Positions 147 to 18,638 of a stretch of 20,000 nucleotides of DNA are shown one piece after another. The stretch is taken from positions 113,944 to 133,943 of IMG/VR virus record IMGVR_UViG_3300035181_001618; one strand, written 5' to 3'. Every line of letters starts with the position of its first letter. The first letter of the stretch is position 1. Made by a program: the position numbers and the translations under genes. This DNA is from an uncultured virus (IMG/VR IMGVR_UViG_3300035181_001618) (lineage: Duplodnaviria > Heunggongvirae > Uroviricota > Caudoviricetes). Below the pieces are notes generated by a model. It was not told the DNA's origin. It searched no databases and saw only the letters and a program-made list of their open reading frames with translations.

Positions 147-1718
147 TTACTCAAACGAGCCAGAACCGTTGACGTAACCGTCGATACCCTGGTTGTACAT
201 GGTAGAGGTGATAGTAGCCGTGGTCCATGCGTGATGATCATTGCCGTTAGTAACGGCAAAGTCGTGAGCGTTACCGCACATGTAGAAGTACATGGTGATA
301 GTTCCTGCTGAATTCATCGTTGCCGTGATGATGTTAGCGCGACCTGAGTAGCTGATCGGATACAGGTGACCCGTTACGGATGCATCTGCATGTACCGGAA
401 TCGAGTTGTTGCCCGTGCCTGGATCGTAGTCATATGCAATGCCACCGTCAGTACCGAAATGCACGGTTCCGTTAGGAGCGAGCGTGACGGTGTCACCTGT
501 GTAGAGGTTTTGGATATTGACAGTGTTAACACCCGATGCCAAGCTGATCCTAGCAGCTTCGCCGTAGAACGTGCTTTGGTAGTAGGCATTGATGTGGACC
601 ACGCCGCCCGGAACGCCAGACACGCTAACGCTCGCTGACCGTGGTTGCAGGAGCGAGAGCGCGTTAAGCGTCAGCGTGCCAGTTCCTGTTGTCGCGTACG
701 TGAAGTCTACAACGCCAACGCCGCTCGAGTTCATCGAGACCGTAGTAGCTGTAATGCCTGACGGACCGCTCAAGCCAGAGCCAGGAGCCAGGTTGACGTT
801 GACAGGCAAGCTCGTAGCGTTCGGCGTGCCCGTGAAGGTCAGGTGGAAGACCACGTTTGTGCCAAGCGTGGTCGAAGTCGGCGTAGCAGACATAGCCGTG
901 AAGCCTGTCAACGTAGGTGCCGGGCTTGGAACTGGAGTTCCTGGCGACGGAGTCGGCGTTGGCGTGCCCTTGCCTGGTGGGCTTGGAGACGGGGTAGGCG
1001 TCGGTGTCGGCGTTGGGCTAGGCGCCGGAGCGTTGACTGTGATGTTGGCCGATTGGGTTGCGCCCACGGTCATGTTGGTGCCGCTATTGACAACGGCCTG
1101 CACGGTCTTGACGCCCGCTGCTGAGCTGCCAATTGTGTACGTGATGTGGCCGACACCGCTCGAGATGATCAGTGATTGCGAGACCGAACCACCAAACGTT
1201 CCGGTTAAGCCGCCCGTTGTGTTGTTGAGCGTGATGCCGGTCGTGACTGACTGGTCAACCGCAGACGTGAAGGTCAGGGTCAGGGTCGAGCTAGAGCCGG
1301 TGGTAACGCTCGACGGCGCGAACGAAGCACCAGAGAAGATGATGGCCGGCGACGGGCCTGGAGTCGGGGTAGGCGTAGGCGATGGGCCCGGAGTCGGGGT
1401 AGGCGATGGCGACGGCGACGGACCGGCTGTCGGGTGAGGCCACACTACAACCCAGTTGCCGCTGATTGTGTAGAGCAGCATCTGATTGTCAGTGCTGTTG
1501 TACCAAAGCTGACCGGTGGTCGGGTGCGGCGGAGCGCTTGAGCTGGCAAAGTGCTCAAGCAGCCTGATCAGGTTCTCCTGCACGCGCTCACCCCAGTTCG
1601 GCGCTGCTTTGCCTGTCAAGGCTAAGGACGTGGATGAGGTATCAATGCTGCCTGCTGGCAGCGTAAACGGAGTCTTTAACGAGTCATTAGACCAGTTAAG
1701 CGTGTAGTTGAATGTCAT
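147..1718 (-). CDS. Tail fibre / baseplate-attached virion protein (523 aa): anchor domain, Ser/Thr-Pro linkers, Ig-like beta modules, distinct C-terminal domain
   Basis: N-terminus DTSSTSLALTG..NWGE..ENLIRLLEHFA..PP.PT.GQLWYN resembles the fibre anchor domain of jumbo myoviruses. It has two PT/PS linkers and T/S/G/V-rich beta repeats. RBS GGAG is 5 nt before the ATG. Paralogous to 16749..18638. Confidence 0.8.
   Translation of the reverse strand: MTFNYTLNWSNDSLKTPFTLPAGSIDTSSTSLALTGKAAPNWGERVQENLIRLLEHFASSSAPPHPTTGQLWYNSTDNQMLLYTISGNWVVVWPHPTAGPSPSPSPTPTPGPSPTPTPTPGPSPAIIFSGASFAPSSVTTGSSSTLTLTFTSAVDQSVTTGITLNNTTGGLTGTFGGSVSQSLIISSGVGHITYTIGSSAAGVKTVQAVVNSGTNMTVGATQSANITVNAPAPSPTPTPTPTPSPSPPGKGTPTPTPSPGTPVPSPAPTLTGFTAMSATPTSTTLGTNVVFHLTFTGTPNATSLPVNVNLAPGSGLSGPSGITATTVSMNSSGVGVVDFTYATTGTGTLTLNALSLLQPRSASVSVSGVPGGVVHINAYYQSTFYGEAARISLASGVNTVNIQNLYTGDTVTLAPNGTVHFGTDGGIAYDYDPGTGNNSIPVHADASVTGHLYPISYSGRANIITATMNSAGTITMYFYMCGNAHDFAVTNGNDHHAWTTATITSTMYNQGIDGYVNGSGSFE
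915..1032 (-). repeat. Low-complexity (Pro-Thr/Pro-Ser)n linker 2 of the 523-aa fibre
   Basis: Encodes APAPSPTPTPTPTPSPSPPGKGTPTPTPSPGTPVPSPAP. Confidence 0.85.
1347..1440 (-). repeat. Low-complexity (Pro-Thr/Pro-Ser)n linker 1 of the 523-aa fibre
   Basis: Encodes PHPTAGPSPSPSPTPTPGPSPTPTPTPGPSP. Confidence 0.85.
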
Positions 1719-1787
1719 GTTGTCTCCGATGCCGGCTCATCGAGCGCCCACAACATTCCGGTCTTGCCGTTGCGAACGGCTTATTTA
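1717..1787 (-). promoter_or_regulatory. T4-like late promoter box TAAATA (1782-1787) with a structured 5' leader for the 523-aa fibre gene
   Basis: TTAAATAA overlaps the oxygenase stop. Hairpin GCCGTT-CGC-AACGGC lies at 1766-1780. ATGTTGT (1750-1756) is complementary to ACAACAT (1717-1723), which covers the start codon. Confidence 0.65.
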
Positions 1788-2419
1788 ACGCTGAACCAAC
1801 CGACTACGGAGTAGCGCTTACCCTTAGTCAAGGGCGTGACCTCATGCAGGAAGCGGATGTCGGATGGGAAGAGGACCATGCCTCCCGTAGCAGGGTGCAG
1901 CTTGACAATCGAGCCATCGCTGTGATGCACCGAATGCAGCACTAGGTCGCCGCCTTCATAGTCCTCATTGAGGTACATGATGCAGGTCAGCTGCCGATGC
2001 GGCGAGGTGTACCTGAAGACGCCTTTTGCGTCGTAGTATGCGTTGTCTGTATGAGCGAGAAAGTGCCCTTTGTCAACGTCAGCGTATGACAAGAACTGAA
2101 GAGGCTCTGAGAGGAACGCCGGCTTACCAAGCAGCGCGGTCGTGTGATGGGTGACAGCCGCTGTCATGCGCTGAGCGACCTGGGCATAAAGCTCAGGCTC
2201 AAGCTGCATGGCTTTTGAGGACCGATGGTAGGTGTCAACCACCTGCTTGTGAAGCGTCACTTCACTGTCATACACGCCCGAAGCTTGAGGGTTGCTCAAG
2301 CTTGCAATCACGCGCTGGCAAAACTCGCCGTCGAGGGTGACGGCGGTAATCACAGGTGGGTGGAACTGTGGCACGAAGTTCGCGCCGTACGGCTCTAACG
2401 AGCGGTAGTCGACGTACAT
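1781..2419 (-). CDS. 2OG-Fe(II) oxygenase, prolyl 4-hydroxylase-like (212 aa)
   Basis: HxD (GHFLAHTD), R.LT.I.YLNEDYEGG.L, distal His (FLHEVTP) and 2-oxoglutarate-binding R-x-S (GKRYSVVGWF). The ATG overlaps the upstream TAA (TAATG). Confidence 0.9.
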   Translation of the reverse strand: MYVDYRSLEPYGANFVPQFHPPVITAVTLDGEFCQRVIASLSNPQASGVYDSEVTLHKQVVDTYHRSSKAMQLEPELYAQVAQRMTAAVTHHTTALLGKPAFLSEPLQFLSYADVDKGHFLAHTDNAYYDAKGVFRYTSPHRQLTCIMYLNEDYEGGDLVLHSVHHSDGSIVKLHPATGGMVLFPSDIRFLHEVTPLTKGKRYSVVGWFSVK

Positions 2420-2640
2420 TAGCGACGCGTTGCTGTGGTCAGTGACCTGATCTCGCCGTTGAGAGCTTTTGGTTCGATCAGCGCGTTGCCTAAGTCATAC
2501 TCTTCAAGAATCATAGCAGGCACAACCTCAAAGACAAATGTGCCCCGATTGCCATTGCGCACGATGTTCTGCAGCTTGTAGCCCTTAACCTTCAGGTAAG
2601 CGGCGAGAATGATGTCTACTGTAGAGAAATTATTTTGCAT
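2419..2640 (-). CDS. Small DUF5659-like protein (73 aa)
   Basis: Pattern T.D..LAAYL...GY.L......G.F.F...........IEP recalled as DUF5659. RBS-like GAGGTG lies inside the 3' end of the HNH gene. Translationally coupled to the oxygenase. Confidence 0.7.
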   Translation of the reverse strand: MQNNFSTVDIILAAYLKVKGYKLQNIVRNGNRGTFVFEVVPAMILEEYDLGNALIEPKALNGEIRSLTTATRR

Positions 2641-3277
2641 GATGCTTTTCCCACCTCAGCTTTGCGCTTTCGCGCATTCTTTGTCGCGTCTCTTCTGACG
2701 CGCTAGAACCGGCATTCCATGCAGGAACGCCTGTTCTCTTTCCTTTGTTAGCCGGCTCTTTGCCTAATCGAGCTTTACTGATATTTGCTTTATGCTCTTC
2801 AGTAAATGTACGCGATGATCCAACTCTGTTGCCCATCATGAGTTGCCTCAAGATCGGATCTTGCCAAACAGCTTTAAGCTTCTCTGACCTTTTAGCTTTA
2901 TTGGCTGGGTCGAGATTTGCAGATTGGAGCCCTGCTAGAATTTTATTCCGATACTGATCATCTTGCCAACGTATCAGCATCTGATCACGCGTAATGTTTG
3001 CATGCTGTCTACGCAGCCAACCATAAGCTTTATTTGAAGCAAATGATCGCGTGATGCTCATCATATGAGCAGCGTGAATCAACTTTGTAGATGGATGAAT
3101 CTTAGCCAGCAAGATATGAGCTAAAAAATGCTCTTCTGGCGTTAACGCAGCAATGTTGGAAGCATCATCGAGCCCGCCCATACATGACGGAACAATATGA
3201 TGACGTTCTACATACCCTTCAATTGACCGAGATTTTGCTCGATCGATGAGGCTCTGATATATGCGTTTGTAATCCAC
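2630..3277 (-). CDS. Free-standing HNH homing endonuclease, T4 MobE-like N-terminus with NUMOD3-like DNA-binding repeats (215 aa, GTG start)
   Basis: MDYKRIY..LI.RAK.R...GY.ERHHIVP.CMGG.D..SN...LTPEEHFLAH.LL.KI.P nuclease domain. NUMOD3-like FTEEHKANISKARLGK and SEETRQRMRES. Visibly more AT-rich than its flanks. Confidence 0.9.
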   Translation of the reverse strand: MDYKRIYQSLIDRAKSRSIEGYVERHHIVPSCMGGLDDASNIAALTPEEHFLAHILLAKIHPSTKLIHAAHMMSITRSFASNKAYGWLRRQHANITRDQMLIRWQDDQYRNKILAGLQSANLDPANKAKRSEKLKAVWQDPILRQLMMGNRVGSSRTFTEEHKANISKARLGKEPANKGKRTGVPAWNAGSSASEETRQRMRESAKLRWEKHHAK

Positions 3278-4861: not shown

Positions 4862-6019
<1,158 letters not shown>

Positions 6020-7799: not shown

Positions 7800-10700
7800 T
7801 TATCCTTCGACCACTACCGTGCGCACTTCGTCAAGCGTGATGAACGAGGTCTTGATGATGTCTGCTAGCTCATATGAAGCCGACAGCGCATCTTCGAGCA
7901 CCTCGAAGAACAGCTCATTGACGTTGCGCGTGTCCGCATAGTTCCAGAGGCTCGCCATGAACTCCCGAATCGCGGTAGGTGTCGCTAAGTATGTATCCAG
8001 CATTGCGGAGTCATACCCAAAGAAGCTCACCGGTGACAGCTTGAACGAGCTGGTGACCACGTCGTAGGTTACAACCTGCGTGTTAAGCAGGGCACCCTTG
8101 ACGGTAGCAACAGCCGCGGCGCTGTCAGACAGCACTTGACCTTGCTTGAGGCCGATGCGCGACGTGGTGCCATTGCGCGAGTCGTACTCAGAGTACAACG
8201 CAAACGGCAGCATCTGGCCTGTAGCCGTTTGACCGCACATCGTGTCAACAAGCTTGTCCCAGAGATCCTTGGGGATTCGAGTTGGCTGGTTCCGACGAAT
8301 GAGCTTCCACTCGGTGTGGGTCGGGCGCAAGGACATGTCGCGGTCATCGTCGCGCATCGAGCCGTTCTCGGTGATCCGCAGCTTATACTGGTTGTCCTTC
8401 CGAACGAAGCGGGTCATGTTGACCACAGACAACAGCGCGTAACGGTTAGGGCGACCGTCAAGCTGGTTGAACCGCTTCATGACTTGAGGCACAGCGTAAG
8501 GACCTGGATGTTGAGCAAGTTGTTGAGCCGCCAGTTTAACGCTAAGCTTCTTACCTGCCGCAGCGGTCTCCTTGTTCTTGACCCAGTAGAAGTAGCTAGT
8601 CTTGCTGACACGGCCAAACTCGTTGCGTTCTTCAAGCTTTGAGTGCGGGGTGTCGAGCTTGTACTCGGTCAGCTTAGCAGGATCTACCGCGGTGCCTTCA
8701 AGCTGGAGCTTCAGCTCGTCACCTGTCGGCACCTTGAACGGCAGCTCGAACCGCAGCTTTGAGCCTTGGTCAATGTTCGACCGGCTAGGGTAGTACCCGT
8801 TAAGGCCCTTTGCTATCTGGTAGCCTCGCACTTGACGGACGCCGTTGATGTAAAATGCGAGACGCGCCGAGTCAGCGGCAGTCACGTTCAGGCTCAGGCT
8901 TTCAAGCACCTGCAAGTGCGTCTGTTCTCCCACGAAGTAGGTAGCTGTTGCGACCGTTGAGGTCAGACGCTTCCACGGGCTCCAGCGCTCGTCATAGGCT
9001 CGCACAGGCTGTGGGCTGTTTAGCTCGTCCTGAATGTCCGTCTTGATGTCATTGAGCTCAGTGCCAACGGCTGTGTAGTCGCCGACCATTGCGGCCCACG
9101 AGCCGAACGAATCGTCAAGGTCATCGGCTCCTAGGGTGTAGGTGGGCATGCTCCACGAGACCCAGCCGGTTGGGCCTGGGATTAGCGAGCCGTTAAGCGT
9201 TGTCACCTGCGGCTCGATGAGAACCCGAGCGGCAACTTGCTGACGAACAACGATGTCGTGAGCTGAATTGCCAAACTCAATGCCGACACGCGCAGCACGT
9301 TGCTCTTGCGTCAGCGTTCCTAAGCCGCCCCAGGCCTCGCTGTGACTGTACTTGGTCTTAGCCGTCAGCTTGATGCCGAGCAAGTCAAGGTTTAGCTCGA
9401 CCAGCGTGGCTGACTTAGGCGGCGTGTCATCGACCAGCACGCGCTGAGTTTGACCGCTTGCAAACGTGACACGCACGTATGTTAGCGACCCAACCTGCTC
9501 ATAGTCGATGACCACAGCGCCGTGAGGCAGAGAGGTTGAGGTCTCATAGATCTCAAACTTGAAGTCCGTGAAGCTGGCTGTGGCGGCATATGTTGGCGAG
9601 CCAAGGGCGTTGGACGCTCCCGCAAGCTGGCTCACATCGCCGGTCAGCACTTCAATGCAGCCGTACGGCTTGAGCATCGTATTACGAGAGCCGTTGGTGT
9701 AGGTCATGCCGGCGATGCGCTCCAGCGCGCTAAACGCCGGCATCGCGCCGTCAAGAGCCAGCACGCTGTCTCCGAAGACTTCGAGCGTTGTGGTCTGCCG
9801 CTTCAGCGGAGCCTTAGGCGAAACCTGTGGGTTCTTTGAGTAGAGCCACACGACCGGGCGTTGATGCCAAGTGCGAGTCCTGCTAAGGTAGTTCTTGACC
9901 GCTAGCTCGCCTGTGCCTGTGTAAGACAGGGGTGGCACGTCGGACTCGATCCACTCAAACACGTCAATGCTCGCCCAGTCAGCAAGCGAACCCCACTGTG
10001 TCAGCCGGTCATTGTGGCTTGGGTAGAGCGCCACGTCGGAGTAGTTCATCCAGCCAGCGTTGGCGGTGTTCCACCAGACCTTGCCTACCTGCTCTCGACC
10101 CCAAGTACGAGAGCCGTCGGCTGTCAACGCCTTGTACTTGAGAGAGGTGACATTGTAGCGAGCAGGGTCATGACCTGCGGCGTAATCAACGGTTGCGTAT
10201 GCCTGTGGGCTGTGAACGCCGCGAGCCGGGTCCCACCAGATGACATTGTTGTTGATCGGCGTGTCACGGCCGCCGTCATCACGATACAGCTGGCTCGGTG
10301 AGAATCTTGCTAGCGGAGGACCATAGGCGATGATCAGCAGCGGCCTGTTGAACAGCGCCGTGTCGGTGATCACTAGCTGGCCAGAGTTCACGCGATTGAA
10401 CTTAGCGGTGCTATACTCAGGTGGGTTAGTGCCTGTGACATAATCGCCCGTTTCGCGGTAGACCTTCGAGCCGCTCTTCATGTAGGACGTGATGTCCAAG
10501 ACCGGGGTCTGGTACACGTTTGCGCCGCTCGTTACGCCGATGTCTACGATCTCAAATGCGTCAGCCAGCACCTCTCGGCCGTCAGCATCGCGCACAGTTA
10601 GCAGCTCAGAGCCGGTGACCTGCACCTGCATGGTTGCAACGATTTGCGCCTTCAGGTAGCTGATGGAGCCCAAGTCGCTAAAACTGTTCCAACGATCCTC

Positions 10701-13700
10701 ATCGTCAGGCTTAATGATGATGCAGCCACGCGGATCGAGCAGGTCCATGTTAACAATCTGCTCATGCGAGTACAGCGTGAACATGTCAAACGGGATCTGG
10801 TCGTAGATCGTCATGTCATAGCCGCCGATGGCAGCGAGCTCGTTGACATAGGCCAGCTCGTCGGCTTCGAGCAGCAGGTAGTTAGCGCGCTCGCTCACCA
10901 TGTCATTGGTCCGAACATTCAGCTCGACCTTAACGGCGCGGCGCAGGTCACCGTACTCAGAGACCTTGTACGCCCAAAGCTCGTCGATCAGAGCCGAACG
11001 GAACAGCGAAGAGTTGACGAAGGAGCTGACGGCACGGTTGGTGCCCTTGCTCTTCAGCATGCCCCGCCAGAACTGCAGCTGCGTCGGCAGGGTGGTGCCA
11101 AGGTCTGAGTGATAGTCTTTGCGGTCAAAGCTGACCAGCGAGCTTGCACGGTCAAACAGCTCTTCGCTCTTCAGCGCGCCGATGTCATAGAGGTTACCCA
11201 GCTGTTGAACGGAGCCCTCCATGTTGGTGCGCATCTTATTGCCCACCAAGTACTTGCCCCCATAGACCGGACGGCCTGTAGGCGTGGCTTGCTTGAAGCC
11301 TTCAAAGAACAGGCGCGAGACATGCTGATTGAGGAACGGCTCGTTAAGAAGCACGTCGCCGACCACATTTTCAAACACGATCACGTGCTCGAACACACTT
11401 GTCGCTACCATAGCGCCGGCCAACGGCACGTCGCTGGTGACCGATGCGTTGCCGTCATCACGGAAGACGCGGAACGAACCCTTCGGAGCGCGTTGGCCGT
11501 CAACCGTGTACAAGCCTGGGATCAGGTTCTGCGCGCCTGGCTTAGACAGGTCAGAGATATAGCCGTACTTAGCCTTGAACCAGAAGCGGCGCTCAAACGG
11601 CGCGAGCACAAAGGCCATGCCGTTGGTCGGACTGTTGAACTGTGCGTCAATCAGCTGTTCAACCAGGAGCTGCCAGCCGATCAAGCGGCCGTTTGTCGGG
11701 TCGATGACCGGGTCCTGCTCGTCATTGAAGACATAGCCGAGCTCAGCCAGCCGGTCAGCTACGCCGAAGATGAACGTGGTCAGAGCTTGCAGCCCCTTAA
11801 CCATGAACGGGCCATAAACGGTACGAAGTGTGGTACGTTGGGTATAACGCTTCCACTCATCCAGGCTTCCCTTGCCTCCTAGAGCATAGAAGGTCTCGTA
11901 GGTAGCCGAGTCATACTCGTACCACTGTAGAGCCGGATGCTTCGGGTTGGTCAGGTCAACGCGGTAGACCCAGTCATCACCGCGAGAGCCCGTAGGGAGT
12001 TTTGCAGGGACGATCCGACCGTTGACGATCTGCGTGCTGCCTGCTTGCAGCAGGGTAACCTTCAAGCCTGTAAGCCACGCCACAGACTGAAGCTCGGTCT
12101 CTTTCAGGTACACGTTATAACCTGATGAGTCAACAACCGCGGTCTCGGCTTTGACGCTCAGCTCATCAGTGTCGACAAGCGTGTTGAAGCGGTATGCAAG
12201 CTTAGGTGTCCAAGCGGCCAGGCGAGCGCGGTCAGCCGAGTAGCTCAGCTCGAGCGAGTTGGCGGCGTGGTAGTGCGCATACAGCTGGCTCAAGCCTTCG
12301 AGCTTGAACGGAGCGTGAGCCAGGGTAACAGTCGCGACTGCAAGCTCGCTGATGGCCACAGTTAGCGTGTCGCCTAGGTTCAAGCCGTCACGCGGCACAA
12401 CGAGCTGGCATGTGGCATAGCCGTCGAGGTGGATTGCATTTGCTGGGTAGAAAGCAAAGGCGAACGAGCCAACTTGCGAAACTCGCACGATGCTATTACG
12501 TGCGCTGGCGACCTCAATGAGGTAGGTTACCGGCGTTGGTGGCGGCGCGATCATGGTGACCGTCAGGGATGTCGGCGTCAACGTCGTCCGATTGATGGGC
12601 TCGCCGTGAATCAGCGCGTCAACAATGTGAGCCTTGCGGCCGAGAGGCCTGACAAGCTCGTAGCCGTCAACCTTGTCAAGCGGGTCACCCCAGCACAAGC
12701 TGATGAACTTCAGTGGGCTAAGCCTGAAGTAGGTCTTGAGCTTTGACGTGACATACTCGAGAGTGTCTGTCCACATGGCCTCAATCGGGCCAAGCTCGCC
12801 GTAGTAGTAGCGGCGGTTAGGCGTCGGCGGAGGAGCGATCATGAGCTGCTCGGCGTTGCCAAAAGCGTACGGCGGCAGCAGCTTACCATTGGTCGTGTCA
12901 ACCGACAGCTGCACAGGCTTGCCCAGCGAGTTAAGCTTCGCCTTGACATTGTCTTGCACGTCGATGCTTGTCCAGTAGCTGATGTCCCAGGTAGTCGTGC
13001 CTGGCGGAACGAAGCCTGCAACCACCAGGTCATTCATAAAAGCGGCTTCAGACTCTTCAACCGAGATGTACGGGTAGAGGTCAGGACGCGACGTGCCGTA
13101 GACATACTGGTAGACGCCTTGCCAAGCCGAGGCTGGACCCCAACCCGAGTTGTAGTAGGACCACGTGAACGGGTCTGCCGGGTTGTAGAGCGGATCGTAT
13201 GGGTCAGGAATGCCGTACTTCGAGCAGAAGCCCAAGAACTCCTTCTCCATCAACGGCATCCAACGCGATGAGCTTTCCAGCGGCGTGTAGCTGAAGGCTG
13301 TGCTGCTTGCCGGGCACGCATTGTAGAGCTCTGTCTCGAGCTCGAGCAACAACGCGGTCAAGGTCGACGCGAGGTCGAGCAGGCGCCATGGCGCCTCTTG
13401 CGCGTGCTGCTCTGAACCCAGGGCTACCCAAGAGCCGTTCCACTGCCAGGTCTCACCCGTCAGCCGATTGTAGGAGAACTGTCCATTGAGCGCGGTAGCA
13501 GGCAGATCGCCGATGTCAGAGACCACGTCGAACAGGTAGAGATTCTCAGCTGACAGGTCGAGCCATAGCTGACGAGCAAACGGAGCTTGCGGCGGAACGG
13601 GACCACCCACAAATCCAGGCGTTTCTTGGCCGTTCGACCGCTTAAAACGCTTCGTTACCAGGCCCTTAAGCACCGAAAAGTCAATCGTTGGAAGGCTCGA

Positions 13701-16331
13701 CTTGTGACCGTCATGATGCACTAACATAGCCCTGTTCTGGTCAGGCTCTACGAGCACGCCAGGCGCTACTTTCGGCGCCAAGCCCAGGTACGGCGCTGTC
13801 AGCGTCAAGGCTTTCAGGCTCATGCTGTTAGTCATGAACGGCGAGTTAACCTCATCGTCCACGAGCGATTCGCTCGCATCTACCACGCTTGACCTGCGCT
13901 CGAGGTAAGCGCGCAGCTGCTTGTAAGTGTCGATGTCAACTGGGCCTGGAGCTGACAAGAAAGCGGCTGAACCTGCCGTCACACGGCTGATGAGCTCCTG
14001 CTCGACAAACTCACGAGTCCGGTTGAGCACGTTGACGTAAGCGTCGCGGCCAAAGTCAAGCAACGCAATAGGATCAGCCGAATCTTGGCACAGCATGCCC
14101 AAGAGGAGCTGAAGCCTGTCATTGAAGATCTTCAGCAAGCCACCCTTGCTATAGTCCTTTGACAGGTTGCGCCAGTTGTTTCGGCTTGAAGCCAGACCTT
14201 CAAGGCCGGGTTGGGCTCCGATGATCGAGACAAAGTGCGAGTACAAGTCACCTTGCTTGAAGCTAGTCGAGAGCGTCGAGTCGAGGTTACCGAACATCGG
14301 CATCGGGCACTTCCAAGCGCCCGAGGCGCTTGCCGGGCTCACGCTTACTTGCCGATCCTCAAGAGCTGAGTTTGACAGGTAGCCAAGCGGGTCTGTCACG
14401 GTACGGTATGAGTCGCCCAGCTTGACATACAAGCTAGCGCGCTTGAAAGCGCTCGACTTGATATCGAAGCTGAAGCGCGAGGTGGCGTCAAAGGCTGTGG
14501 TGCCCGAGACTACCGAGAAGGTCGTGCCGCCAACGGTGTACGGTGTGTCCACCGTCAATGTAGGCAGGGCTCCTAGCACGGTGCTGTACACGTCAAAGGT
14601 CGTGCCGCCAGCATGGCCGGTTAGCTGAATAACTTGCGGGAGCGCATTAGCGTCAACGTTGAGCGTCGAGAGCTGACCGTTGCCAGCGCCAATGTTCTCG
14701 TACTCGCGGATGAAGTACGGGAACGAGGTGCCGTCTGTAGCGTTGTCGTAGTAGCCTGTCAGCAGAGTCTGAGCGAAGCGGACGCCCCGCACCGTGCCAA
14801 GCAGGCTTGCTTGCTCAGCAGCCGTAGTCATGGCTCCCTTAGTCAGCTCGAGCTGATCAAGGTTAACAAACAGCGTGCCGCCTGTGTAAGCGTCCGTCAG
14901 CTTGTCATTGATGGTTGACGGTGGCATGTACAAGCCGGTGCTCTCATCGTGAGCATATGTTCGGAAAGTAGGCAGCTGGCCGAGCGCCGTCTTCGCTCCT
15001 AGGAGCTGAGACTCTAGCTCAGCATTGAACTCGATGATGGGCCGTTGGGCTTGCAAGTAGTTGAGGCGCTCTGCCGTTGTCAGCTGGCTTGAGTGCTTCC
15101 ACCGGTTGTCGAGCGACCAGCCGCTCGTTCCGCCAGCTTCGATGACCGTATATTCGGCTTGCCCGATAGGGTTGTAAGCCGGCAACGCACCGTCGGCAAC
15201 GCCTGTCCAATAGTAGCTCTCGAAGTTTTGCAGCTTGTCAGCGTTGATTAGCGCGCCGGCTGTCTCATACTTGACGTACTCTTGGCCGATCAGCGCGGCC
15301 CCACGCCAGACGGAAGCCAGGCTAAATGAGCCGCTAGCGTAACGCTTGAAGAACAGCGGACGGTCTTCGGTCGGCGAGGTGAAACTGTGGCCAAATGTCA
15401 GGTCGGCGGCAGCGTCTCGCACGATCCGCCTACCCAGGGCTGCGTCAATCGGCTGATCAGCGGCCTCCTTGTAGAAGAAGCCGCTCGAGATGTAAGCAGA
15501 GTGATCGCCGTTAGCGTAGTAGAGGTCGAACAACGGCGGTTGGTTAGGCGCGGTCTTGACTTGCGGACTAGGCGTACCGCTGTCGGCAGGCTCGCCCGTA
15601 GAGGTTGCGTAGAGGTTAAGCTTGAGGTTGCTCTCAAACTCGAGGATCGGCCGTAAAGCCTGCACGATGTCATTCGAGCTAAGGACCGGGTACGCCAGCT
15701 GGAAAGCCTGAGCGTCAGCCTTGTGGAGCCACATGTTGCCCAGAGCCCAGTCAGACCAGGCGCCCAGACCTGGGTAAGGGGCCACCGGCGTGTTGCCTGA
15801 AAGAGCCGAGCGAGCGATAACATAGTAGTCAGCAGCTTGTGTCGGGTTTGCGGCTTGCAAGGAGGCTACAGAGGCCGTAGTGAAGCCGATGTCGTTCCAA
15901 GGCAGCTCTGGGTGAGCAACCAACCACTTGCCTACCCACACATACTCGTCAAAGTTAGCAAACTTGTCAAGGTCGATGAACGGGACAAAGTTGAGGCTCT
16001 CGACCGTCAGCCAGTCAGCGACGCTGTCATAGGGCACGTCTAACGTGACGAGGCGTTGCACGAGCTCGCGCCATGTAGTCAGGCGCTCTTCGGTGCCTTG
16101 CTTGCTGTAGAGGACAGGTGCGAGCTGATTGACCTGCCGCTCGAGGTCAGCTTCGCGGATGTAGATGTCTGAGGACTGTGCTGCAGCTTCGCTGCCGACA
16201 AAGCCGTGGAGGATGACAGACTCGTCCTTGCTCAGGTGATTGTTGAACAAGGCCCTCATGAGGGTCGTGATCGTGCGGTTCTGGTACTGCTTAGGGAGCA
16301 GCGTTGCTAGATCAAGGTTCTTGTTTGCCAT
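7800..16331 (-). CDS. Giant baseplate / virion structural protein (2843 aa)
   Basis: Uninterrupted 8.5-kb ORF. Motifs LLP..YQ, R...QL.P, IDLDKF.NF..Y.W, RPI.EF, QFWRGM..KGT, I.E.WA..V.EYG, WDPARG, WG..QVG.VWW, WG.L...ASIDV.EWIES..PP, YFYWVKNK and KTSFI are recalled from jumbo myovirus baseplate proteins. Confidence 0.8.
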   Translation of the reverse strand: MANKNLDLATLLPKQYQNRTITTLMRALFNNHLSKDESVILHGFVGSEAAAQSSDIYIREADLERQVNQLAPVLYSKQGTEERLTTWRELVQRLVTLDVPYDSVADWLTVESLNFVPFIDLDKFANFDEYVWVGKWLVAHPELPWNDIGFTTASVASLQAANPTQAADYYVIARSALSGNTPVAPYPGLGAWSDWALGNMWLHKADAQAFQLAYPVLSSNDIVQALRPILEFESNLKLNLYATSTGEPADSGTPSPQVKTAPNQPPLFDLYYANGDHSAYISSGFFYKEAADQPIDAALGRRIVRDAAADLTFGHSFTSPTEDRPLFFKRYASGSFSLASVWRGAALIGQEYVKYETAGALINADKLQNFESYYWTGVADGALPAYNPIGQAEYTVIEAGGTSGWSLDNRWKHSSQLTTAERLNYLQAQRPIIEFNAELESQLLGAKTALGQLPTFRTYAHDESTGLYMPPSTINDKLTDAYTGGTLFVNLDQLELTKGAMTTAAEQASLLGTVRGVRFAQTLLTGYYDNATDGTSFPYFIREYENIGAGNGQLSTLNVDANALPQVIQLTGHAGGTTFDVYSTVLGALPTLTVDTPYTVGGTTFSVVSGTTAFDATSRFSFDIKSSAFKRASLYVKLGDSYRTVTDPLGYLSNSALEDRQVSVSPASASGAWKCPMPMFGNLDSTLSTSFKQGDLYSHFVSIIGAQPGLEGLASSRNNWRNLSKDYSKGGLLKIFNDRLQLLLGMLCQDSADPIALLDFGRDAYVNVLNRTREFVEQELISRVTAGSAAFLSAPGPVDIDTYKQLRAYLERRSSVVDASESLVDDEVNSPFMTNSMSLKALTLTAPYLGLAPKVAPGVLVEPDQNRAMLVHHDGHKSSLPTIDFSVLKGLVTKRFKRSNGQETPGFVGGPVPPQAPFARQLWLDLSAENLYLFDVVSDIGDLPATALNGQFSYNRLTGETWQWNGSWVALGSEQHAQEAPWRLLDLASTLTALLLELETELYNACPASSTAFSYTPLESSSRWMPLMEKEFLGFCSKYGIPDPYDPLYNPADPFTWSYYNSGWGPASAWQGVYQYVYGTSRPDLYPYISVEESEAAFMNDLVVAGFVPPGTTTWDISYWTSIDVQDNVKAKLNSLGKPVQLSVDTTNGKLLPPYAFGNAEQLMIAPPPTPNRRYYYGELGPIEAMWTDTLEYVTSKLKTYFRLSPLKFISLCWGDPLDKVDGYELVRPLGRKAHIVDALIHGEPINRTTLTPTSLTVTMIAPPPTPVTYLIEVASARNSIVRVSQVGSFAFAFYPANAIHLDGYATCQLVVPRDGLNLGDTLTVAISELAVATVTLAHAPFKLEGLSQLYAHYHAANSLELSYSADRARLAAWTPKLAYRFNTLVDTDELSVKAETAVVDSSGYNVYLKETELQSVAWLTGLKVTLLQAGSTQIVNGRIVPAKLPTGSRGDDWVYRVDLTNPKHPALQWYEYDSATYETFYALGGKGSLDEWKRYTQRTTLRTVYGPFMVKGLQALTTFIFGVADRLAELGYVFNDEQDPVIDPTNGRLIGWQLLVEQLIDAQFNSPTNGMAFVLAPFERRFWFKAKYGYISDLSKPGAQNLIPGLYTVDGQRAPKGSFRVFRDDGNASVTSDVPLAGAMVATSVFEHVIVFENVVGDVLLNEPFLNQHVSRLFFEGFKQATPTGRPVYGGKYLVGNKMRTNMEGSVQQLGNLYDIGALKSEELFDRASSLVSFDRKDYHSDLGTTLPTQLQFWRGMLKSKGTNRAVSSFVNSSLFRSALIDELWAYKVSEYGDLRRAVKVELNVRTNDMVSERANYLLLEADELAYVNELAAIGGYDMTIYDQIPFDMFTLYSHEQIVNMDLLDPRGCIIIKPDDEDRWNSFSDLGSISYLKAQIVATMQVQVTGSELLTVRDADGREVLADAFEIVDIGVTSGANVYQTPVLDITSYMKSGSKVYRETGDYVTGTNPPEYSTAKFNRVNSGQLVITDTALFNRPLLIIAYGPPLARFSPSQLYRDDGGRDTPINNNVIWWDPARGVHSPQAYATVDYAAGHDPARYNVTSLKYKALTADGSRTWGREQVGKVWWNTANAGWMNYSDVALYPSHNDRLTQWGSLADWASIDVFEWIESDVPPLSYTGTGELAVKNYLSRTRTWHQRPVVWLYSKNPQVSPKAPLKRQTTTLEVFGDSVLALDGAMPAFSALERIAGMTYTNGSRNTMLKPYGCIEVLTGDVSQLAGASNALGSPTYAATASFTDFKFEIYETSTSLPHGAVVIDYEQVGSLTYVRVTFASGQTQRVLVDDTPPKSATLVELNLDLLGIKLTAKTKYSHSEAWGGLGTLTQEQRAARVGIEFGNSAHDIVVRQQVAARVLIEPQVTTLNGSLIPGPTGWVSWSMPTYTLGADDLDDSFGSWAAMVGDYTAVGTELNDIKTDIQDELNSPQPVRAYDERWSPWKRLTSTVATATYFVGEQTHLQVLESLSLNVTAADSARLAFYINGVRQVRGYQIAKGLNGYYPSRSNIDQGSKLRFELPFKVPTGDELKLQLEGTAVDPAKLTEYKLDTPHSKLEERNEFGRVSKTSYFYWVKNKETAAAGKKLSVKLAAQQLAQHPGPYAVPQVMKRFNQLDGRPNRYALLSVVNMTRFVRKDNQYKLRITENGSMRDDDRDMSLRPTHTEWKLIRRNQPTRIPKDLWDKLVDTMCGQTATGQMLPFALYSEYDSRNGTTSRIGLKQGQVLSDSAAAVATVKGALLNTQVVTYDVVTSSFKLSPVSFFGYDSAMLDTYLATPTAIREFMASLWNYADTRNVNELFFEVLEDALSASYELADIIKTSFITLDEVRTVVVEG

Positions 16332-16386: not shown

Positions 16387-16752
16387 TCAGTCAAACTCCC
16401 ACTGGTCAACTTCGGTCTCGATCCACTTAGCGATGGCATCCTCGTCATCACCATGGACTACCGCGGGCAGCATCGTTGCGCCGCGGTGCTCGCTCTCGTT
16501 GCTGATCGCCCACTTGACGCCATGCTCAGCCACTATATCATGGTTGATATAGTACATGTAGTTGTCATTCGGTTGCAGCACGACTGTGTTTGCAACGGCC
16601 ATGTCGGTTGATTGCAATGCAGGCGCCCAGCCGATGTAGCACCCATCTTGAGAGTAGACCTTGAACTCATGGTCTCGCTCAGCGATGTCTTGCTGGAACA
16701 TCAGCATGAGCTTTTTCATGCTGATGTTCTCTAGCAGCGGCTGAATCCTCAC
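16387..16752 (-). CDS. Hypothetical protein (121 aa from GTG 16752; alternative ATG 16719), possible capsid-internal protein
   Basis: GTGA overlap with the stop of the 629-aa gene gives MRIQPLLENISMKK. The track start at 16851 would overlap the Hint coding region by about 100 nt. Confidence 0.65.
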   Translation of the reverse strand: MRIQPLLENISMKKLMLMFQQDIAERDHEFKVYSQDGCYIGWAPALQSTDMAVANTVVLQPNDNYMYYINHDIVAEHGVKWAISNESEHRGATMLPAVVHGDDEDAIAKWIETEVDQWEFD

Positions 16753-18638
16753 TCCTTCACCACCATGAAGTTGTGCGTGAAGATGTACCGGCCCGGCTCG
16801 TCGCCTGCGGCATAGCACTGGTTTAAGCAGTAGATCGTTGCTACCAACCAACGCCCTTGCGGCTCAACAGAAGTGATGGTCTCCCAGCGGAAGCCGCTGT
16901 TGTCCTGCACCGGCAGCTGCTTGCCTAGCACGTCGGTCGAGTTGCACATTGAGCCGTCGCGCAGAGTCATCGGCGTGTTGTCCGAGCAAGTCAACGTGAT
17001 GCCAGACTCAGAGGTCAGCTTTAGCACGTTTTGCTCGCTGATACGGTTCGTGACAACCTGCCCTGCCATAGAGGACTCGCGCTGGTTCGGTTCGAGCAGC
17101 ATGAGCGGGTCACCAGCTTGGAGGTTGCCTGCTTGCTTCTCGGTGAACGGCATGTAGGCTGTCACCTTGACAGATCCGCCGCCACCCCCGCCACCTGGGC
17201 TTGGTGAGCCTCCGCCGAATGCGCCGTTGTAGTTGACTTGCACTTGGTTGCTGAGCGTGTAGCCGAAGTTGTTCCAGACAGCGGCTTGGTAATAGTAACC
17301 CGACCCGATTTGAGGGCCGCCGTTCATGCTAGTGCTGCCGCCCGTAGCCGCGGAGCCAGCCGGGAAGCTGATGGCTGAGCTGTTGTACGCTGGCACCCAC
17401 CATTGACCGCCACCCAAGCCTGACGGCCTGACATTGGTCTGTAGGCCATTAAGGTCAGCGCCTGCAAAAATCGGTGCGCCGGTAAGCGGGCCGTTAGACC
17501 AGCCGTAGCTGATCGGGCCTATGCCCGTAGCGGTCAGCGACAGCGTAACCGGAGTCGTCCAGTTGGTGCTGACGGAGGTTGGCTGCACCGTGATGACCGG
17601 CGCCGTACCTGACGTGCTGACAACGATGGAGTCTGAGCGGATCGTGCCGGCCGGCGTGATGCCATAGACCTGTGCGGATAGCGAGTGCGTGCCAGTCGAA
17701 GTTGCGGTCACGTTGAACGCCAAGGTACCCACGCCGCCTGTGATATTGAGCGAGCCTACAATCGCGTTGTCAAAGTCGCCCGAGAGCCCACCGCCTGGGT
17801 TAGTCAGGATAGTGTTGACGGTAACAGTTTGGTCAACAGCTGATGTGAAGTGCAGCGTGATGACAGCATTCTGACCCACGGAGTACGGGCCTGCTGCAAA
17901 GGTCGCCGACGTGTACGTGATAGCAGAACCAACAGGAGTGCCTGGGGTCGGCGACGGCGTGGAGGCAACGACGGTGACATTAGCTGTACGTGAACCGCCG
18001 ACGATGTTGCTGCCCGTAGCGGTCGCTAGCATCGGGTGGAAGCCCGTTGTGACCGTGTTGACCGTGTAGTTCAGATAGCCGATGCCACCAATGATCTGCA
18101 CTACAGTAGAGTGAGGGCCGCCGGCTCCCGAGTTGAGACCACCGTCATTGTTGACCAGCGTGACGGTGACCGGCGCAACTTGATCCGTCGGCGACGTGAA
18201 TGTCAGGGTCAGGGTCGTGCTGCCCCCGATAGTGACGGATGTAGGTGAAAACTCAAGCGCGGCGTAGGTCACGTCGGTGCTTGGAGATGGGGTAGGTGTT
18301 GGGGTAGGGCTTGGAGTCGGGCTCGGGCTCGGCGTGCTGAACTCAGGGTGTGGCCACATCACAACCCATTGAGCCCCTGTAGTGAACATCTTCAGCTCAT
18401 CATTCACCGGATTATACCACACCTGGCCAGCTGTCGGGTGTGCAGGCGCAACGCCGCTCGAGAAACTCTCCAAGAGCTTCATCAGGTTTTCGACCAGATG
18501 CTCGCCCCAGTTCTCAACACCCCTGCCTGTCAATGCCAGCGAAGTGGTCGAGGTATCGATTGACCCAGCGGACAAGGTAAACGGCGCCTTAAGGGAGTCG
18601 TTTGACCAGTTGATGGTGTAGTTATTGAGAGTCGCCAT
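16749..18638 (-). CDS. Tail fibre / virion protein (629 aa): anchor domain, PT/PS linker, Ig-like modules, Gly7 linker, C-terminal Hint domain
   Basis: Same anchor domain as 147..1718. Ig-type motif APVITVQPTSV....PVTLSLTATG.GPISY.W...YY....N..G...S..V.V. Ends GGGGGGG-SV...IFTHN-FMVVKE. Confidence 0.85.
   Translation of the reverse strand: MATLNNYTINWSNDSLKAPFTLSAGSIDTSTTSLALTGRGVENWGEHLVENLMKLLESFSSGVAPAHPTAGQVWYNPVNDELKMFTTGAQWVVMWPHPEFSTPSPSPTPSPTPTPTPSPSTDVTYAALEFSPTSVTIGGSTTLTLTFTSPTDQVAPVTVTLVNNDGGLNSGAGGPHSTVVQIIGGIGYLNYTVNTVTTGFHPMLATATGSNIVGGSRTANVTVVASTPSPTPGTPVGSAITYTSATFAAGPYSVGQNAVITLHFTSAVDQTVTVNTILTNPGGGLSGDFDNAIVGSLNITGGVGTLAFNVTATSTGTHSLSAQVYGITPAGTIRSDSIVVSTSGTAPVITVQPTSVSTNWTTPVTLSLTATGIGPISYGWSNGPLTGAPIFAGADLNGLQTNVRPSGLGGGQWWVPAYNSSAISFPAGSAATGGSTSMNGGPQIGSGYYYQAAVWNNFGYTLSNQVQVNYNGAFGGGSPSPGGGGGGGSVKVTAYMPFTEKQAGNLQAGDPLMLLEPNQRESSMAGQVVTNRISEQNVLKLTSESGITLTCSDNTPMTLRDGSMCNSTDVLGKQLPVQDNSGFRWETITSVEPQGRWLVATIYCLNQCYAAGDEPGRYIFTHNFMVVKE
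16770..17174 (-). other. Hint (Hedgehog/intein, bacterial intein-like) domain, 135 aa, no endonuclease
   Basis: Ser1 after the Gly7 linker; K.AGNLQAGD.L (block A region); LKLTSESGITLTCSDNTPM (block B); WETITSVE...V.TI.....YAAG (block F); IFTHN (block G). Confidence 0.8.

Follow-up and report, generated by a model that had tools for sequence, protein, structure and literature searches.

The window analysed here is the 20,000-nucleotide stretch (positions 113,944 to 133,943) at the end of a 133,943-bp record of an uncultured virus of the Caudoviricetes (IMG/VR IMGVR_UViG_3300035181_001618), a record judged 37% complete. It carries a tail fibre gene, P0001, whose product ends in a predicted Hint domain. 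The fibre has an N-terminal virion-attachment region, followed by a Pro/Thr/Ser linker, immunoglobulin-like repeats and a C-terminal cassette of seven glycines, the Hint domain and a tail of six residues. The features of the gene and its cassette, all on the reverse strand, are listed below in window positions (aa, amino acids).

16749-18638 (-), fibre gene P0001, 629 aa (open reading frame list and translation)
17175-17195 (-), Gly7 linker, aa 482-488, with Gly488 the -1 residue at the N-terminal junction (translation and DNA)
16770-17174 (-), Hint domain proper, Ser489 to Asn623, 135 aa
17172-17174 (-), Ser489, codon TCT, candidate position-1 nucleophile (aligned with intein residue 1 and Hedgehog Cys258)
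16971-16985 (-), block-B equivalent S552-D-N-T555-P556 (hidden Markov model alignments to inteins)
16836-16838 (-), Thr601 at the block-F Asp position (alignment to 'LIDIEV' of gp41-1)
16770-16778 (-), Thr621-His622-Asn623, block-G end of the domain (aligned to the intein terminal Asn)
16770-16772 (-), Asn623
16752-16769 (-), C-extein hexapeptide FMVVKE, with the stop codon next (translation and DNA)
16755-16757 (-), Lys628, penultimate residue of the FMVVKE tail

A preliminary description of this DNA, made from the letters alone, had given the same layout (Gly7, a 135-aa domain ending in His-Asn, then FMVVKE), and its coordinates and every residue it named proved correct, including Phe624 as the +1 residue, which was confirmed from the translation. 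The N-terminus of the fibre matches phrog_15511 and phrog_14394 ('virion structural protein'). A paralogous fibre of 523 aa (147-1718, reverse strand) is without the Hint cassette, as had been claimed, and has only the N-terminal 225 aa in common with the Hint fibre (50% identity over aa 6-223). At E ≤ 1e-3 there is no other homologue of the Hint-fibre body (aa 120-481), hence no 'pre-spliced' allele either. Judged from these comparisons, the conserved unit is the cassette rather than the fibre.

Predicted structure of the C-terminal domain

When used as a single sequence, the last 148 aa of the fibre gave no match to Pfam, PHROGs, NCBIfam or the PDB sequences. AlphaFold2, supplied with an alignment of 49 relatives, returned an all-beta model (predicted local distance difference test (pLDDT) 92.6, predicted template modelling score (pTM) 0.88). 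A Foldseek comparison with the PDB gave 54 matches at E ≤ 1e-3, and every match listed was to an intein, a bacterial intein-like (BIL) domain or Hedgehog. Re-scoring of the matches by VIA-align gave the following values.

NpuDnaB intein (4o1r), Z 18.5, 1.8 Å over 131 aa
Hedgehog (1at0), Z 17.4, 1.9 Å over 129 aa
gp41-1 intein (6qaz), Z 16.8, 1.8 Å over 122 aa
Tetrahymena BUBL BIL2 (6tmm), Z 15.5, 2.2 Å over 132 aa
C. thermocellum BIL (2lwy), Z 14.8, 2.4 Å over 130 aa, below several inteins

In the structural register, model residue 8 (Ser489) falls on intein residue 1 and on Cys258 of Hedgehog, and model residue 142 (Asn623) falls on the terminal Asn of inteins. As modelled, the C-terminal domain is a genuine Hint fold with both junctions in register, which upholds the fold and the Ser1 position proposed in the preliminary description. 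The nearest viral clusters in a language-model feature search carry Intein_splicing, PT-HINT or Vint (score 0.91, a lead only). A Pfam scan of 49 family members returned one match each to Intein_splicing (1.3e-5), PT-HINT (4.1e-5), Hint (0.017) and Vint (0.03), and 64 further family representatives gave no Hint-type Pfam match at E ≤ 0.01.

The catalytic positions were located with a PDB profile search built from 30 trimmed domains; an untrimmed profile drew spurious matches to single-chain antibody (scFv) linkers via the poly-Gly run. The matches of the trimmed profile were sub-threshold yet consistent (gp41-1, E 0.042; CDC21 intein, 0.1; KlbA, 0.23; NpuDnaB, 0.34). In these sub-threshold alignments S552-D-N-T555-P falls on the block-B motifs 'SEEH' of gp41-1 and 'TPTH' of the CDC21 intein, which puts Thr555 in place of the block-B His. 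The same alignments set Thr601 against the block-F Asp and the T-H-N end against that of gp41-1. Blocks F and G are separated by a five-residue insertion (GDEPGR). The block-B reading SDNT, without His, and the Thr at the block-F Asp position had both been recognised from the letters alone, and the profile-to-PDB alignments (E 0.042-0.34) agree with them. An assignment to the class 3 inteins was rejected, as position 1 is a conserved nucleophile and block-F:4 is Thr, His, Arg or Leu, not Cys.

Conservation among relatives

An exhaustive HMMER search returned 700 cluster representatives at E ≤ 1e-3, of which 291 reached E ≤ 1e-10 and 30 reached E ≤ 1e-30. Among the best 150 of the 700, the domain ends 3-10 residues from the protein C-terminus in nearly all, and the carrier proteins range from 90 to 4560 aa. 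The N-extein bodies are unrelated to one another and measure 133-4560 aa. Carriers include proteins with the tail-fibre domains Gp53-like_C, Phage_Tail_Tip, Mtd_N and collagen, and a poly-Gly run stands ahead of position 1 in most relatives. The view that the domain is a domesticated module and not a selfish intein holds up well against these data: there is no +1 nucleophile and no homing endonuclease, the C-extein is 6 aa long, and the fibre bodies are unrelated and number in the hundreds, all of which fits an end-module.

Residues were tallied position by position in 171 proteins, which together hold 180 copies of the domain. At position 1 there are 118 Cys, 48 Ser and 3 Gly, with a gap in 11 copies. 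The terminal His is present in 173 copies and the Asn in 169, the remainder being gaps. Conservation at both ends, which the preliminary description had put forward as a check, is therefore clear, with only Cys, Ser or Gly at position 1 and a near-invariant His-Asn. Block B retains Ser (165 of 180) and Pro (178 of 180), the His position is occupied by Thr (157) or Ala (22), and the block-F Asp position is variable (T 51, H 42, R 29, L 20). Since block B lacks His and block F varies across the family, the atypical active site is a family trait and not a defect of this copy; the earlier treatment of blocks B and F as peculiar to this protein has to be given up. Judged by conservation, Arg617 (Arg or Lys in 156 of 180), Asp579 and Glu586 are candidates for the residue that would fill the block-B His site.

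The unusual Ser1 is present as described, but in a FastTree reconstruction of 177 domains it appears as the derived state of one clade within a Cys1 family. All 48 Ser1 tips lie in a single clade of 49 (support 0.72), the 49th tip being a fragment without that position. Members of the Ser clade are only about 50-64% identical to the query, and Cys to Ser (TGT to TCT) is a single base change. According to this tree, a single switch took place inside the Cys1 family, and all 48 tips have retained it.

The tail lysine and natural variants

The end motif is present in 168 proteins, 159 of which have tails no longer than 30 aa (mode 6 aa, 150 distinct sequences). The +1 residue (n = 177) is A in 32, P in 31, I in 20, V in 19, K in 17, L in 13, S in 11 and T in 7, with others making up the rest and Cys never found. 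Lys is present in 159 of the 159 short tails, whereas the 2.5% Lys content of these proteins would predict 25.5 such tails and a content of 6% would still predict no more than 53.7. There is exactly one Lys in 151 of them. In 116 of the 159 the Lys stands second from the end and in 15 at the very end, and it is never replaced by Arg. The first tail Lys lies at +1 to +14 from the His-Asn. On these counts the invariant tail Lys (Lys628 here) is the strongest functional clue that the family offers, and one that the preliminary description overlooked. Its invariance argues that the hexapeptide would take part in the reaction and is not waste for trimming.

Tandem Hint domains occur in nine representatives. 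Seven of these were scanned, and four (P0055, P0066, P0130 and P0145) have pilin-like N-termini that match N_methyl or PilS; P0068 and P0142 gave no match, and P0133 is also a tandem. In eight of the nine, domain 1 ends in HHN-KK (HHN-KK-x-G-x) and domain 2 keeps Cys1 but is without the Asn or a tail (HHD, HHS etc.); P0053 differs in keeping both His-Asn and the Lys tail. The Ser clade has tandems as well (SHN-K..GGG-S). The order of Hint, short Lys peptide and Hint recalls the BIL-Ubl-BIL arrangement of BUBL.

In the three proteins with Gly at position 1 (P0069, P0107 and P0143), the poly-Gly linker and the tail Lys are missing as well and TQR or TQH stands in place of His-Asn, and this co-loss ties linker, position 1, His-Asn and tail Lys together. 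As the same subclade keeps the fold-defining residues, the domain can persist without these features, which would suit a non-catalytic relic, that is, a Hint fold kept as a structural or receptor-binding tip with no processing. The family-wide absence of the block-B His and block-F Asp would suit it too. Such a relic is nevertheless quite improbable. Outside that subclade position 1 tolerates only Cys or Ser; a His-Asn exactly at the domain end with a Lys always behind it is hard to explain by structure alone; and some natural inteins without the block-B His still splice (PMC7664689).

Proposed processing of the fibre

With the fold, the boundaries, the conservation and the modular spread on phage fibres established, a course of processing can be proposed. 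The sequence and the model tip the balance slightly towards the last 141 residues being a single-turnover, self-removing Hint cap like a type-A BIL domain. Cys or Ser at position 1, an invariant His-Asn, the lack of a +1 nucleophile and an invariant Lys that is never Arg fit a self-removing cap in which the tail participates. We infer the following chemical steps. The Gly488 carbonyl would first be attacked by Ser489 in an N-to-O acyl shift, leaving the fibre held on the domain by an ester. Asn623 would then cyclise with the help of His622, cutting the bond to Phe624, and the ester would finally be resolved by water or by a tail amine, for which the epsilon-amine of Lys628, as in BUBL BIL2 of Tetrahymena, is the likeliest candidate and the freed alpha-amine of Phe624 the alternative. 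The 15-kDa domain would leave, and the mature fibre would end in the Gly run, with or without a short Lys peptide joined to it. The benefit to the phage, also inferred here, would presumably be that of a transient C-terminal cap in folding or assembly of the distal fibre tip.

The part played by the tail is more doubtful. Conservation and the analogy with BIL2 make the lysine a possible acyl acceptor, although overall a tentative one. Of similarly limited likelihood is a full isopeptide splicing reaction, in which the last Gly, as ester or thioester, would be passed to the tail Lys of the same or a neighbouring trimer chain, followed by excision through Asn cyclisation; if true, the distal fibre tip would be capped or stapled by an isopeptide-linked peptide.

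Type-A BIL domains have Cys1, His-Asn and no +1 nucleophile; cleavage is their main reaction, and once the Asn has cyclised, aminolysis of the N-terminal thioester can also lead to splicing (PMC4031507). The fibre domain resembles them (e.g. the Clostridium thermocellum BIL, 2lwy) in its Cys/Ser1, its His-Asn end and the lack of a +1 nucleophile, and in being carried by variable, surface-type proteins and not by conserved enzymes (PMC4031507). It differs in that the block-B His is replaced by Thr or Ala throughout the phage family and the block-F Asp is absent. The phage domains also lie at the extreme C-terminus of tail fibres, behind poly-Gly and ahead of a short tail with an invariant Lys, and the Pfam Hint-type models miss the domain of this fibre. 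BIL2 of the Tetrahymena thermophila BUBL1 locus (6y75/6tmm), which likewise has no +1 nucleophile, joins its N-extein to a lysine epsilon-amine by an isopeptide bond (PMC8616854), and the invariant tail Lys of the phage family hints at the same chemistry. BIL2 retains the block-B His (H69), however, and lies between two ubiquitin-like domains, and its acceptor lysine is within a folded domain, whereas the possible acceptor in the fibre is in a six-residue tail and is predicted only. Compared with the class 1 mini-inteins (gp41-1, 6qaz; NpuDnaB, 4o1r), the domain has the T-H-N end of gp41-1 and, in structural register, Ser489 at position 1 and the terminal His622-Asn623, but it lacks a Cys, Ser or Thr at +1 (Phe624) and the TxxH motif (SDNT). 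It also has no conserved host protein, since its N-exteins are unrelated and its C-extein is a hexapeptide.

Given that BIL domains yield mainly cleavage products (PMC4031507, PMC7664689), processing could stop at the N-terminal junction. The Gly488/Ser489 bond would be cleaved by hydrolysis, leaving a poly-Gly end, and the domain would be a pro-domain or helper functionally analogous to the peptidase S74 chaperone, with His-Asn and the Lys tail needed only for fold stability or regulation. Phage fibres are already known to carry self-cleaving helpers at the C-terminus (PMC7824862), an exposed scissile bond would sit well with the Gly at -1 and the flexible linker, and the second domains of the tandems, with Cys1 but without Asn or tail, indicate that an N-junction-only mode exists in the family. 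As an account of this fibre it is nonetheless unlikely. If the N-junction alone mattered, His-Asn and the Lys tail should drift, yet they are conserved as strongly as position 1, and a domain uncoupled from the fibre body by a Gly7 tether would be badly placed to nucleate the folding of a trimer. The likeness to S74 is one of position and presumed logic, both being C-terminal modules of phage fibres that remove themselves (presumably so for the Hint domain; PMC7824862), whereas S74 has a Ser-Lys dyad in a trimeric domain and the fibre domain is modelled as Hint and has no Pfam match. A three-copy complex prediction of the Hint domain, which bears on an S74-like trimerising role, scored 0.00 and weighs neither way.

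Resolution of the ester by an outside nucleophile, such as a virion protein or a host-surface amine or hydroxyl, would couple the fibre tip covalently, as Hedgehog is coupled to cholesterol. Hint chemistry permits this, Hedgehog needing only the first acyl shift (PMC7664689), and BIL2 moves its N-extein onto lysines of other proteins (PMC8616854). The fibres and adhesin-like proteins that carry the module also have it at their distal end, which faces the receptor, and the Hedgehog/Hog structure (1at0) shares with the module a Gly-nucleophile junction (Gly257-Cys258 in the alignment) and a place C-terminal to the functional part. Hedgehog, however, has no terminal His-Asn and possesses a sterol-recognition region, whereas the fibre domain ends in His-Asn followed by FMVVKE only. 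Throughout the family just 3-8 residues, and no adduct-recognition region, follow the Hint domain; no conserved partner gene lies nearby; and the invariant lysine in cis is a simpler acceptor. Ligation in trans is accordingly given very little chance.

Several points weigh against the self-removing cap itself. In canonical inteins the block-B His and the block-F Asp promote the acyl shift, and Ser is a poorer nucleophile than Cys. With both residues missing from the whole family (180 copies and the alignments), the N-terminal reaction could be slow or absent. The tail Lys keeps its position relative to the C-terminus and not to the His-Asn, which fits a recognition or anchoring role too. The last block of the AlphaFold2 model, which holds the tail, is of low confidence (pLDDT 63), and it gives no placement of Lys628 close to Ser489. 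No Pfam family matches the Hint domain of this fibre at E ≤ 1. The loss of all four features in the Gly1 subclade probably represents a single evolutionary event. Finally, the mechanism as a whole is drawn from sequence and predicted structure.

Comparison with published systems

No description of a Hint domain on phage tail fibres was found in the literature searched, which covered few subscription journals and no supplements; the articles consulted that link Hint domain and tail fibre concern terminase or ribonucleotide reductase inteins, or report no Hint domain. Autoprocessing by Hint and BIL domains is known, and it is the family, the fibre context, the His-less block B and the lysine tail that appear to be undescribed. 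In the passages of this literature that were consulted, lysine-isopeptide Hint chemistry is reported for ciliate BUBL BIL2 only and not for viruses, and the S74 chaperone is the sole self-cleaving fibre-end module named; a Hint cap, if true, would be a second, unrelated kind. It would be spread over hundreds of sequence clusters, in jumbo phages and phage-like alphaproteobacterial loci, and is nameless in current family libraries. Tail fibres decide the host range of phages. For phage annotation and engineering the consequence, if the cap is removed, would be a mature fibre end about 15 kDa short of the predicted one. For the intein field the family represents a natural Hint lineage that dispenses with the block-B histidine, and its lysine in place of the +1 nucleophile opens aminolysis or isopeptide routes of protein ligation to direct tests.

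Distribution and genomic context

The Hint domain is present once in the 133,943-bp record. The genes around the Hint fibre specify a baseplate wedge subunit, a 2843-aa virion structural protein and a collagen-like tail fibre. The baseplate wedge protein is closest to those of jumbo myoviruses (RsoM2USA, 44%; Stenotrophomonas phages CM1 and RAS14; XacN1). Nine phage records in GenBank carry the domain, namely seven Xanthomonas phages (PhiXhv-12, PhiXhv-15, PhiXhv-16, Ep026, XacN1 (ORF231), LucasX and RTH11), Erwinia phage Ep032 and Stenotrophomonas phage DLP_6. Six of these records label the gene hypothetical, one calls it 'VlrC protein' and two give no annotation, and the main text of the XacN1 paper does not mention ORF231 (PMC5852040). 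The domain also occurs at ten loci in alphaproteobacterial genomes. One carrier, a repeat-rich protein of 969 aa from Sphingomonas populi, matches PHROGs of unknown function and ends in G13-FG-C...THN-KSIE; from its sequence it looks like a prophage or gene transfer agent fibre.

A search for related loci from the fibre protein alone found an identical copy only, and related loci were collected with alignments of closer relatives. In the comparison of 15 related viral loci, conservation of neighbouring genes was confined to near-identical phages, and the module therefore appears to be self-contained. The genes directly downstream of the Hint fibre are the following.

16387-16719 (-), 110-aa open reading frame (ORF) directly downstream of the fibre gene (read from DNA)
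7800-16331 (-), 2843-aa virion structural protein (phrog_10938, E 1e-78), directly downstream of the fibre gene and the small ORF

The 110-aa ORF has one homologue (78% identity) and no Pfam or PHROG match, is unlike the Hint-gene neighbours in 14 other related loci, and gave an AlphaFold2 model that is unusable (pLDDT 43.9) and has no informative Atlas neighbours.

Other genes of the tail-fibre cluster were noted in passing. A homing endonuclease gene of the HNH/NUMOD3 type (2630-3277, reverse strand; phrog_655, E 6.5e-50) lies within the cluster. The collagen-like tail-fibre gene (4862-6019, reverse strand) has a G-P-T repeat, and the long ORFs that overlie it (5157-5900, forward strand, and 5233-5748, reverse strand) are most likely by-products of that repeat. 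A 2OG-Fe(II) oxygenase gene (1781-2419, reverse strand; PF13640, E 7e-19; phrog_61) adjoins the paralogous fibre, which has long Pro/Thr/Ser linkers, and is about 2.4 kb from the collagen-like fibre. Its product may be a hydroxylase that modifies the fibres. By eye, a 191-aa ORF of the related locus L015 (3393-3968), also within a fibre cluster, looked similar to the oxygenase.

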